Source: Candidatus Omnitrophota bacterium (GTDB taxonomy: Bacteria; Omnitrophota; Gorgyraeia; Aquiviventales; JACQRC01). Taken from it: DNA of 63,948 nt. The stretch is from positions 1-63,948 of the forward strand of contig JACQRC010000105.1 in assembly GCA_016206665.1 (NCBI GenBank). The letters run 5' to 3'. The notes below the pieces were generated by a model, which saw nothing but the letters and a program-made list of their open reading frames with translations, ran no database searches and was not told where the DNA came from. The position numbers and the translations under genes were made by a program. This document shows, in pieces, positions 41,221-41,766 of this stretch. Positions within the stretch are counted from its first letter, which is position 1. Every line of letters starts with the position of its first letter.

Positions 41221-41250
41221 TTGACACTATAACAAATTTTGTGGTACACT
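41221..41250 (+). promoter_or_regulatory. sigma70-like promoter overlapping the left terminus of the CACGAAA element
   Basis: TTGACA-18 nt-TACACT followed by CAAAGCA. Confidence 0.45.
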
Positions 41251-41766
41251 CAAAGCAGACCACGAAACCACGAAATGTCACGAAACCACGAAAAAGAACT
41301 CATCAGCACGCTGGGCAAGCCGAAATGGGACAGGAAGCCGGAACTTTACGAGCTTTCCAATCAGGTGATAGGACTCGGTATTCGAGTGCATCGAACCTTG
41401 GGGTCGGGCTTTCACGAAAGCGTGTACAGCAAAGCGTTGACCCACGAGCTAGTAAAACAGCAGATCCCGTTTGTGCAGGAACTGCCGATCACTGTGGTGT
41501 ACGATGGGGTGGTTGTAGGGAGACACCGGTTGGATCTTGTTATCCGGGACAGCCTGCTGTTAGAACTGAAGGCTGCGGTGAGCATTAACAGATTTCACCT
41601 CGCACAGATGCTCTCATATCTTAGGGCGACCCAAAAGCCCCTCGGGCTCATACTCAATTTTTCACGGGCGACACTGGAGATTAAGCGGGTGGTCAATTAG
41701 GACCGAGCGCCCATCGTCGTTTCGTGTTTTCGTGACCTTTCGTGCTTTCGTGGTGTGCTTTATGTG
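41247..41766 (+). mobile_element. filled CACGAAA palindromic element: two inverted arms split by a 418-bp cargo carrying the GxxExxY gene
   Basis: Left arm 41247-41296; right arm 41715-41766, whose reverse complement CACATAAAGCACACCACGAAAGCACGAAAGGTCACGAAAACACGAAACGACG aligns base for base with the left arm and with the empty copies. Confidence 0.7.
41275..41700 (+). CDS. GxxExxY protein (PD-(D/E)XK nuclease superfamily)
   Basis: IGLGIRVHRTLGSGFHESVYSKALTHEL..VVYDG..HRLDLVIRDSLLLELKA...LLSYLRATQKPLGLILNF; the ATG at 41275 lies inside the repeat arm. Confidence 0.8.
   Translation: MSRNHEKELISTLGKPKWDRKPELYELSNQVIGLGIRVHRTLGSGFHESVYSKALTHELVKQQIPFVQELPITVVYDGVVVGRHRLDLVIRDSLLLELKAAVSINRFHLAQMLSYLRATQKPLGLILNFSRATLEIKRVVN

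Follow-up and report, generated by a model that had tools for sequence, protein, structure and literature searches.

Among the closest systems in the full-text literature are intervening sequences (IVSs) of ribosomal RNA (rRNA) that bear an open reading frame (ORF), pairs formed by repetitive extragenic palindromic (REP) doublets forming hairpins (REPINs) and REP-associated tyrosine transposases (RAYTs), and heptamer repeats that remain unexplained. The 23S rRNA IVS of Coxiella has a 28-bp stem of terminal repeats, carries three tandem GACAGAT heptamers before the start of a four-helix-bundle (4HB) gene and is cut by RNase III within the stem (PMC4990558). Heptamers such as TTTTGAA in Nostoc, one of the short tandemly repeated repetitive (STRR) sequences of cyanobacteria, and TAACTGA in Beggiatoaceae are described as direct arrays near genes. 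The same literature yielded no description of inverted-arm cassettes carrying GxxExxY or 4HB genes outside rRNA. Here we describe such a cassette, a GxxExxY nuclease-fold gene between two arms of CACGAAA units, in a contig of 63,948 nt from a Candidatus Omnitrophota bacterium (JACQRC010000105.1; "the window" hereafter denotes this whole stretch), and compare it with related loci in other genomes and metagenomes.

Gene-free and nuclease-bearing elements are also relevant. The Correia and NEMIS (Neisseria miniature insertion sequence) elements of Neisseria are miniature inverted-repeat elements co-transcribed with their neighbours, and Correia elements are RNase III substrates. I-Ssp6803I is a small homing endonuclease of the PD-(D/E)XK type. 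The GxxExxY family itself (PF13366) comprises about 40,000 representative clusters (40,253 at E ≤ 0.001), its structure is unsolved and its function is not known; a survey of PD-(D/E)XK proteins likewise lists it as being of unknown function.

Architecture of the cassette

The element is very probably a member of a widespread group of stem-bracketed single-gene modules, in which a nuclease-fold gene (product of about 125 aa) is flanked by terminal inverted repeats of two to four tandem units of 7-13 nt. In the window, a repeat search recovered the arms as a 47-nt inverted repeat (41247-41293 and 41720-41766) with 87% complementarity and 426 nt between the two; the gap is 418 nt if the arm limits are set as in Table 1, following an earlier note made from the letters of this DNA. 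Each arm is a half hairpin with its units in a single orientation, four copies of CACGAAA (TTTCGTG on the right) at a spacing of 8/10/8 nt, preceded on the outer side by a terminus of about 14 nt without repeats. The window contains CACGAAA 31 times (expected, 7.2 ± 2.6), a count reached by 0 of 100 shuffles, and 23 of these occurrences fall in three elements, namely the cassette and two hairpins without an ORF (36856-36919 and 49835-49906). The nuclease gene is the sole conserved ORF enclosed by the arms, its ATG at 41275 lying within the third unit of the left arm, and RNA folding of 41245-41768 predicts that the arms pair with one another. Repeat search, profile matches and folding thus bear out what the earlier note had read from the letters, i.e. 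the arms, their CACGAAA units, the GxxExxY gene, the ORF-less copies and the neighbouring genes, and the similarity of the arms lies far beyond chance.

The cassette begins 37 nt from the stop codon of a HisKA_7TM-type histidine kinase gene ending at 41209, and its downstream neighbour encodes an RHS/YD-type protein. The promoter-like pattern that had been seen to overlap the left terminus is present as a predicted site with 10 of 12 consensus matches, against an expectation of 0.8 sites for the region; related cassettes mostly have no space for a comparable one. As for the host, the best named relatives of the FabF encoded in the window come from Candidatus Omnitrophota (70-73% identity).

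The GxxExxY protein

The encoded protein matches TIGR04256 GxxExxY (E 4.6e-37; 126.9 bits, cut-off 35) and PF13366 PDDEXK_3 (E 2e-34; 118.8 bits, cut-off 22). Across 38 aligned sequences that include it, E48, D87, E97 and K99 are invariant, while G45 and Y51 are invariant or nearly so; the GxxExxY motif is intact, as are the predicted PD-(D/E)XK catalytic residues (E, D, ExK). Relatives typically have a length of 123-125 aa and align from about residue 20 of the window protein, and an AlphaFold2 model (predicted local distance difference test, pLDDT, 90.6) predicts residues 1-20 to be disordered, with the conserved domain starting from about residue 21-26. Since the ATG also lies within the arm, we regard the N-terminal extension as arm-encoded. 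Database homologues with over-called N-termini show tandem peptide repeats (e.g. TETRKATETRKR), which are the same arm-encoding effect viewed at the protein level.

Foldseek returned as best matches Cas4 SSO0001 (E 5e-4, TM 0.47-0.54), MGME1, the AddB/AdnA nuclease domains and lambda exonuclease, and we are confident that the modelled structure represents a PD-(D/E)XK alpha/beta fold of the Cas4 / RecB / lambda-exonuclease kind. A resolvase-like fold was considered and rejected, given that Hjc-type matches were weak (E 0.26) against 5e-4 for the Cas4/RecB types. No significant relative of the window protein emerged from a sequence search of the PDB, PADLOC matched no cassette cargo to a defence system, and no relatives were found in a search of viral contigs. 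Exact-sequence searches with this protein and with the kinase of the window likewise gave no match. Many of the best family hits (proteins P0206-P0260) are 250-295 aa long and contain two GxxExxY domains in tandem; the catalytic residues of the second domain are degenerate in some, and such proteins resemble single-chain pseudo-dimers. These natural two-domain fusions suggest that the working unit of the GxxExxY protein may be dimeric.

Arms in the wider family

A protein-guided scan of metagenome contigs with a 12-sequence alignment returned 80 GxxExxY loci. The 200 nt upstream of each gene were aligned to the reverse complement of the 200 nt downstream, with a threshold score of at least 30. 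This flank score was attained in 45 of the 59 non-redundant loci with enough flank; shuffled flanks averaged about 18 and seldom scored above about 30. The arms are invariably composed of tandem units, be it CACGAAA, CACAGAG, CGCAAAA, CAGGAA(G), CACGGAT, ACGCAGA or the 13-mer GATTTCACCGATT, and the median distance from the stop codon to the right arm is 6 nt. The suggestion in the earlier note that hairpin-borne single-gene cassettes form a real class is strengthened by this proportion and by the sister cassettes described below, and its concern that other GxxExxY copies might lack such arms did not materialize. The window and 40 related cassette loci gave no match to rRNA or any other Rfam family, and the cassettes are therefore neither situated inside rRNA nor members of a curated RNA family.

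Three cultured strains were inspected and two of these have clear arms. Sphingomonas parapaucimobilis YK209 features units of the CGCGAAG type with a flank score of 42, while Gemmatirosa kalamazoonensis KBS708 reaches 115 with CTTCAGTCC present three times on each side as complete hairpins. The gene of Treponema saccharophilum is accompanied by a single 11-nt repeat only, whose score of 22 against a shuffle maximum of 21 is at chance level. On plasmid 1 of G. kalamazoonensis (locus L128), the hairpins at 490-582 and 1103-1193, of about 90 nt each, bracket the GxxExxY gene in the layout (CTGAAGAAGGA)3, loop, (TCCTTCTTCAG)3, a variant geometry without half arms.

Further variations on the arms were encountered. 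Locus L005 (5250-5603) has composite arms, with CGCAGAG three times and then CACGAAG four times, mirrored 175-190 nt away, which suggests nested elements from two motif families. The CACGAAA cassettes of clade 4 (e.g. L047, L051, L055 and L061) have GGACGAAA as third unit on the left, where the right arm, read as its reverse complement, has GTACGAAA; this difference recurs in several independent loci and amounts to a conserved G-A mismatch, which could serve as a left/right marker.

Co-evolution of arms and protein

Proteins were clustered and each was labelled by its dominant arm hexamer. The arm motif families (GATTTCACCGATT, CACGAAA, CAGGAA, CACAGAG and CGCAAAA) track the protein clusters, the window protein being clustered with CACAGAG and CGCAAAA elements, and a sharp outer terminus, ACACC, is common to all of these. 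Mini-hairpins were assembled from the arms of 11 elements belonging to the same clade as the window protein. Of their stem cells 93% were paired, with changes on both sides in 16 of 31 pairs, a result matched by 0 of 500 shuffles; pairing dropped to 31-55% in slid registers. An identical substitution may be found in all four units of one element (such as A-U to G-C at position 2 of the unit), from which it follows that the units change in concert. On this evidence, unit sequence is clade-specific and changes in concert across both arms.

Ten loci whose arms consist of GATTTCACCGATT units form two groups of orthologues; within each, flanks and cassette can be followed over 2-3 kb at 75-81% nucleotide identity. 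In both groups the nuclease gene has a ratio of nonsynonymous to synonymous change (dN/dS) of 0.03-0.07, the proportion of synonymous differences (pS) being 0.64-0.91 except in one pair (0.37); the copy at L108 has a stop codon in frame. At this level of divergence, the 13-nt units are off consensus at 4.5% of 624 positions and the spacers are unalignable. In L086, the same T-to-A change is present in four of four units. Sequence comparison within these two groups of relatives, as opposed to the window copy itself, indicates strong purifying selection on the nuclease gene and vertical inheritance.

Placement, presence and dispersal

The nearest long upstream ORF is co-directional with the cassette in 33 of 39 loci, and in 24 of these 33 its stop codon lies inside the left arm or no more than 4 nt away from it. 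Co-directional downstream genes often start 5-20 nt past the right arm. The tight abutment to stop codons is a stronger signal than co-directionality; it could partly result from selection preserving the ribosome-binding site of the next gene. By their sequence context, modules occupy very short junctions, usually directly past the stop of a co-directional gene, and can be stable there across genomes that are about 75-81% identical. Target-site duplication was seen at none of the 40+ elements with sharp termini.

In S. parapaucimobilis, an arm-gene-arm segment of about 450 nt is situated between fabD and fabG. The corresponding spacer of S. paeninsulae measures 33 nt and contains no hairpin, the two species being distant at about 72% identity. 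From this comparison we conclude that arms and gene were gained or lost as one unit. A difference in presence and absence, on which the earlier note had let its reading hinge, thus exists between Sphingomonas species.

ORF-less hairpins with the same units are dispersed within the same genome and in many phyla. The strict pattern CACGAAA-N-CACGAAA-NNN-CACGAAA, for which about 0.3 chance occurrences were calculated for the genome collection, matched 33 loci in Planctomycetota, Acidobacteriota (eight contigs of one Vicinamibacterales metagenome-assembled genome, MAG), Bacteroidota, Desulfobacterales, Gemmatimonadales, WOR-3, Poribacteria, Bacillota and one Thermoplasmatota MAG. About 17 of the 33 are short hairpins and two enclose a GxxExxY gene, the remainder being solo arrays or arrays of other spacings; throughout, the units are conserved and the spacers are neither conserved nor complementary. 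Near cassettes on other contigs, about 70 kb contained two same-motif arrays, each with the cognate motif. In the Vicinamibacterales MAG, six consecutive CACGAAA units directly precede a ribosome-binding site and start codon (L027, 3742-3792), and CACGAAA arrays adjoin long arrays of other units, GGTTCGAAGGTTCAAGG among them (L030, 2697-2729); this genome seems to carry many array families.

The two ORF-less copies of the window fold into hairpins of about 31-32 bp, in which the spacers form internal loops of 1x1 and 3x3 (Table 1). Compared by hand, the left arm of the 49821 copy and the reverse complement of the cassette's right arm agree at 49 of 52 positions, the CGACG at the inner end among them, and the cassette's left arm, with its CAGACC terminus, is most like the right arms of both ORF-less copies. 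These arm-type matches imply that the filled copy is inverted relative to both hairpins. For the apex sequence that the earlier note reported as shared, CGTCG at 41715-41719 corresponds to CGACG at 49868-49872 on the other strand, and the likeness holds only with the filled copy read in the opposite orientation to the empty one. Read thus, filled and ORF-less forms differ exactly at the apex, with CACGAAA-CGACG-T-TTTCGTG in the 49821 copy and CACGAAA-CGACG-[cargo]-T-TTTCGTG in the cassette. This junction fits either insertion at the tip or clean internal deletion. The solo half-arm at 59753-59793 showed no inverted partner.

At L114-L123, the loci of protein P0006 in a relative of 35% GC, a GxxExxY cassette with nested double CGCAAAA arms likewise follows a HisKA_7TM kinase gene and is itself followed by an AbiE toxin-antitoxin pair. 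The next gene varies by contig, being either a ketoacyl synthase or a further kinase, and this variation hints that the module has been duplicated or rearranged. Synteny of the window with these loci (kinase, GxxExxY, ketoacyl synthase) was considered and set aside, as homology is confined to the kinase (39-48% identity) and the GC contents are 35% against 62%.

Sister cassettes and other features of the window

Table 1. Coordinates of the cassette, related elements and an adjacent transposase gene in the window.
Feature	Position	Strand	Details
Left arm (beta type)	41247-41296		Outer terminus CACTCAAAGCAGACC, then CACGAAA units at 41261, 41269, 41279, 41287
Right arm (alpha type)	41715-41766		CGTCG, TTTCGTG x4, outer terminus GGTGTGCTTTATGTG; starts 14 nt past stop codon
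GxxExxY / PD-(D/E)XK nuclease-fold gene	41275-41700	+	141 aa; family profile matches
Sigma-70-like promoter-like site (predicted)	41221-41250	+	TTGACA-18-TACACT, TG ahead of second hexamer; overlaps outer end of left arm
ORF-less hairpin	36842-36928		4+4 units, 6-nt loop; between helix-turn-helix (HTH)-cupin gene and response-regulator gene; -46.2 kcal/mol, z -7.7
ORF-less hairpin	49821-49907		5 nt past stop of upstream gene, ~20 nt ahead of fabF; -39.9 / -48.7 kcal/mol, z -6.2 / -8.5
Solo half-arm	59753-59793	+	ACACC terminus, CACGGAA x4, same 8/10/8 spacing; directly after stop codon
4HB sister cassette	34770-35263	-	Gene 34875-35238; arms 34770-34790 / 35243-35263, AGTGACT-type heptamers
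Lipoprotein sister cassette	17581-18243	-	Gene 17631-18107, 158 aa, predicted lipoprotein; repeats 17581-17612 / 18212-18243
REP-associated Y1 (IS200-like) transposase	24060-24848	-	PF01797 1e-16; NF047646 64 bits, under cut-off 80

Two other small genes of the window had been named as possible cases of the same architecture, and both proved to be flanked by significant inverted repeats. The 4HB gene, which matches PF05635 (3e-29) and TIGR02436 (5e-29), i.e. the 23S rRNA IVS protein family, has arms of 21 nt that are 90% complementary (score 32, shuffle maximum 23), one of them 4 nt past the stop of 35268-36008. In the DNA that we examined, four of five 4HB genes possess such arms: that of the window and those at L003 (TTTTGAA), L037 (AGTGGTC) and L064 (GGGCTCA). 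The predicted lipoprotein gene lies between repeats of tandem 14- and 22-nt units (score 39, shuffle maximum 23), which begin 3 nt past the stop of the upstream gene 18247-19116; its product had no match in protein-family profile searches. The 4HB frame contains no stop before the downstream arm (34060-35238, minus strand), continuing through that arm (…SLDTSH…) into the next ORF and across a signal-peptide-like stretch (…VLAALVVFWSLF…AYA-Q), be it through a fusion or a lost stop. The Y1 transposase unit (24041-24915) has inverted AAAATGGGGGACGGTTCTATTTTT-type repeats on both sides, with two tandem 27-nt copies on one; it looks like an ordinary REP/RAYT unit that stands outside the hairpin-cassette class.

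The window is rich in further tandem heptamers, some of them within coding sequence. Two adjacent paralogous HisKA_7TM kinases carry different heptamers in the equivalent loop of their ATPase domains (AGCACAC x4.3 at 38767-38796 in the first, CAGCAAT x4.7 at 40943-40975 in the second), which encode the low-complexity inserts …HTANSTQHTD… and …QQSAVSNQQSA…, respectively. A minus-strand RHS/YD-repeat ORF of 2544 aa contains arrays of TGGCTGA (x4.9, 26985-27018), AGTGAC(T/C) (x3.7, 27722-27754) and GTGAC(C/A)A (x4.6, 27855-27886), its AGTGAC units being of the same family as the 4HB cassette arms. Two further arrays, both without an inverted partner, consist of GCACTAA x6 (100% identical) followed by CACCGAA-like units just before an ATG at 57468 (57346-57460), and of AGCAATC x6.3 at the end of the kinase gene 52896-55217 (55217-55260); they resemble the STRR and TAACTGA-type leader repeats of cyanobacteria and Beggiatoaceae. 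The full RHS/YD-repeat protein (25190-32824) and the short ORFs 41785-43142 and 43552-45039 share a core-end motif (…YFHPDHLGSTTLVTDEQGQVVQEV.YKPYGEVYAQAGAVNLPHKFTGQRHD…). These three RHS-type ORFs have differing C-termini and a small ORF after each, and look like an array of orphan toxin tips and immunity genes directly 3' of the GxxExxY cassette.

Mechanism and alternative explanations

The mechanism that we consider the most likely may be sketched as follows. The repeat units would be sequence-specific recognition sites of the encoded protein, acting as a dimer or higher oligomer, in a pairing akin to that of RAYTs with REP/REPIN sequences or of transposases with their ends. The protein would cut or hold the arms as duplex, hairpin or cruciform DNA, which may lead to copying or maintenance of the module and of its ORF-less derivatives. 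Read-through transcription from the upstream gene would turn the arms into a long RNA stem, cleavable by RNase III as in the 23S IVS, and this cleavage could let a promoter-less cassette reside in an operon without harm. In short, we infer units read by the encoded protein, in a RAYT/REPIN-like manner based on PD-(D/E)XK chemistry, and arms that would also function as an RNase III-type RNA stem. Our main reason for preferring a sequence-specific reader is that the unit sequence is itself conserved, whereas a pure stem constraint permits compensatory drift. For the whole explanation, architecture and mechanism jointly, our confidence falls a little short of even.

The arms might instead act at the RNA level only, forming a double-stranded stem in read-through operon transcripts (an RNase III site or an insulator) that frees or controls a promoter-less gene; the nuclease would then have an unrelated job in repair or defence, and the ORF-less hairpins would be ordinary stability or processing elements of 3' untranslated regions. 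The geometry is indeed that of rRNA IVSs, which RNase III cuts, the arms pair in the predicted fold, and cassettes adjoin co-directional stop codons, often 5-20 nt ahead of the next start; cargos other than nucleases sharing the architecture, as well as the long vertical residence with dN/dS of 0.03-0.07, are equally at home in this account. It sits less easily with unit sequences that are conserved beyond pairing where synonymous sites are saturated and spacers vary freely, and with units that change in concert within an element while their motif tracks the protein clade. Moreover, G-U-compatible mismatches are not in excess on the sense strand, and the three window copies differ in orientation relative to transcription. 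On this evidence, an explanation in terms of RNA alone is possible but unlikely. Mere coincidence, in which an ordinary gene would have come to lie between two independent, oppositely oriented intergenic repeats in the style of REP sequences, is close to refuted. Housekeeping genes are sometimes bracketed in such a way (a sulfatase at L017, TruB at L109, a decarboxylase at L055) and Gemmatirosa has a complete hairpin on each side; against this stand the arms of 45 in 59 GxxExxY loci, which start a few nt past the stop codon, the half hairpins of the window with units in one orientation only, the shared phylogeny of arms and protein, and the joint gain or loss of arms and gene in Sphingomonas.

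The earlier note had favoured a filled and an empty site, with the gene dropped into the tip of an existing hairpin. Dispersed hairpins would then have come first and genes later, for example where an apex break was repaired from a filled copy as in homing, and the hairpins at 36842 and 49821 would be true empty targets. The window junction does lie exactly at the apex, with CACGAAA-CGACG at one inner edge and T-TTTCGTG at the other, hairpins outnumber filled copies, and a homing endonuclease of the PD-(D/E)XK type exists in I-Ssp6803I; a clean internal deletion, however, explains the junction equally well. The empty site in Sphingomonas has no hairpin, arm motifs go with the clade of the protein instead of with the host, further hairpins of the same motif are absent near most cassette loci, and arms of about 47 nt that are 85-90% alike are short for recombinational repair. 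We therefore consider insertion at the tip improbable. Since the arms have also been inherited with the gene over long periods, the hairpin-less empty site and the clade-tracking motif lead us to take arm-gene-arm as the unit and the ORF-less hairpins as likelier derivatives, those of the window more likely being internally deleted or co-amplified forms of the filled copy.

Several observations weigh against the preferred reading, in which the encoded protein recognizes the units. The main weakness lies in a putative link between protein and arms that is drawn from sequence, and in an architecture that also carries non-nuclease cargos, the 4HB protein and the lipoprotein, so that a nuclease is not needed for it. 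The long vertical residence of the gene, together with the strong purifying selection on it, speaks for usefulness to the host and not for an active mobile element, and the units are non-palindromic, which is unusual for the site of a small dimeric nuclease. Extra same-motif arrays near cassettes are few (the two in about 70 kb given above). About 70% of adjacent bacterial gene pairs are co-directional, a typical proportion that 33 of 39 exceeds just modestly. Lastly, the count of wobble pairs for the transcribed strand (66 sense, 54 antisense) gives no strand signal and supports neither an RNA stem of the sense strand nor its absence.

Implications

For a family as large as GxxExxY, arms that form a fixed, co-evolving DNA or RNA partner offer ideas that can be tested at the bench, with the units as candidate binding or cleavage sites and the stem as a candidate RNase III site. 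At least two cultured carriers are available, S. parapaucimobilis YK209 and G. kalamazoonensis KBS708, while the T. saccharophilum gene has just a short repeat. The finding also links three puzzles: the origin of ORF-bearing rRNA IVSs, the role of 4HB IVS proteins outside rRNA, and the tandem heptamers that fill intergenic DNA in cyanobacteria, Beggiatoaceae and, here, Omnitrophota. Speculatively, GxxExxY nucleases and their co-evolving arms may be a new class of element, in part mobile and in part domesticated, which would be the PD-(D/E)XK counterpart of RAYT/REPIN, would also package 4HB and other small genes, and would be the source of ORF-bearing 23S IVSs and STRR-type heptamers; we regard so broad a proposal as doubtful.

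Comparison with known systems

Integron gene cassettes differ from the present ones in having a single attC hairpin 3' of the ORF, where ours have arms on both sides, and none of the window ORFs run through Pfam, in a search of the window that was not exhaustive, matched an integrase family. With homing endonuclease genes such as that of I-Ssp6803I, the cassettes have in common a small nuclease ORF within an element that is removed, in the cassettes putatively, at the RNA level, as well as presence and absence among relatives. They contain no self-splicing intron or intein, however, and most copies look old and fixed; cleavage of an empty allele, a feature of homing systems, is for the cassettes a hypothetical activity.

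The ORF-less copies, as inverted-repeat hairpins of about 90 nt in short intergenic spacers, are reminiscent of Correia and NEMIS elements. They differ in that cassette elements show no target-site duplication, their arms are internally repetitive and a full-length coding form exists. Miniature inverted-repeat transposable elements (MITEs) offer a similar comparison for these copies, in which the inverted repeats are present but the termini of the 40+ elements are without target-site duplication. STRR-type heptamers resemble the arms as tandem heptamers in intergenic positions near start or stop codons; many such arrays occur in the window, and the 4HB cassette at L003 has arms of the TTTTGAA type itself. 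They have not, however, been described as inverted arms around one specific gene family.

The REPIN/RAYT system, of which the window contains a true example at 24041-24915, is closer. There, too, a single gene is bracketed by a repeat in inverted copies, intergenic hairpin doublets of this repeat are dispersed elsewhere, and long vertical inheritance is coupled with purifying selection on the gene and co-variation of repeat and protein. The proteins are nonetheless different, with the PD-(D/E)XK fold (PF13366) in GxxExxY and the HUH/Y1 fold (PF01797) in RAYTs, the cassette arms consist of tandem units of 7-13 nt in place of a palindrome tagged with GTAG/CGTC, and the cassette partnership is a putative one.

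The analogy with 23S rRNA IVSs drawn by the earlier note is apt in view of the 28-bp stem of the Coxiella IVS, with its tandem heptamers and its 4HB ORF (PMC4990558). Like the IVSs of Coxiella burnetii and of Leptospira (helix 45), the cassette is an element of about 430 nt in which a single small ORF is enclosed by a stem of terminal inverted repeats; the arm beside the start codon carries tandem heptamers, as in Coxiella, where GACAGAT is present three times, and the ORF of the 4HB sister cassette (4HB / S23p) belongs to the IVS protein family. In contrast to IVSs, the window cassette is situated between kinase and RHS-type genes and not, as IVSs are, in helix 25 or 45 of a 23S rRNA, its cargo is a PD-(D/E)XK nuclease (PF13366) and not an S23p / 4HB protein, and it has dispersed ORF-less copies; RNase III cuts the IVS of Coxiella and would be a candidate for cutting the window stem. 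We thus describe the cassettes as a variant that is both IVS-like and REPIN/RAYT-like, with a fair chance of their forming a class of their own.

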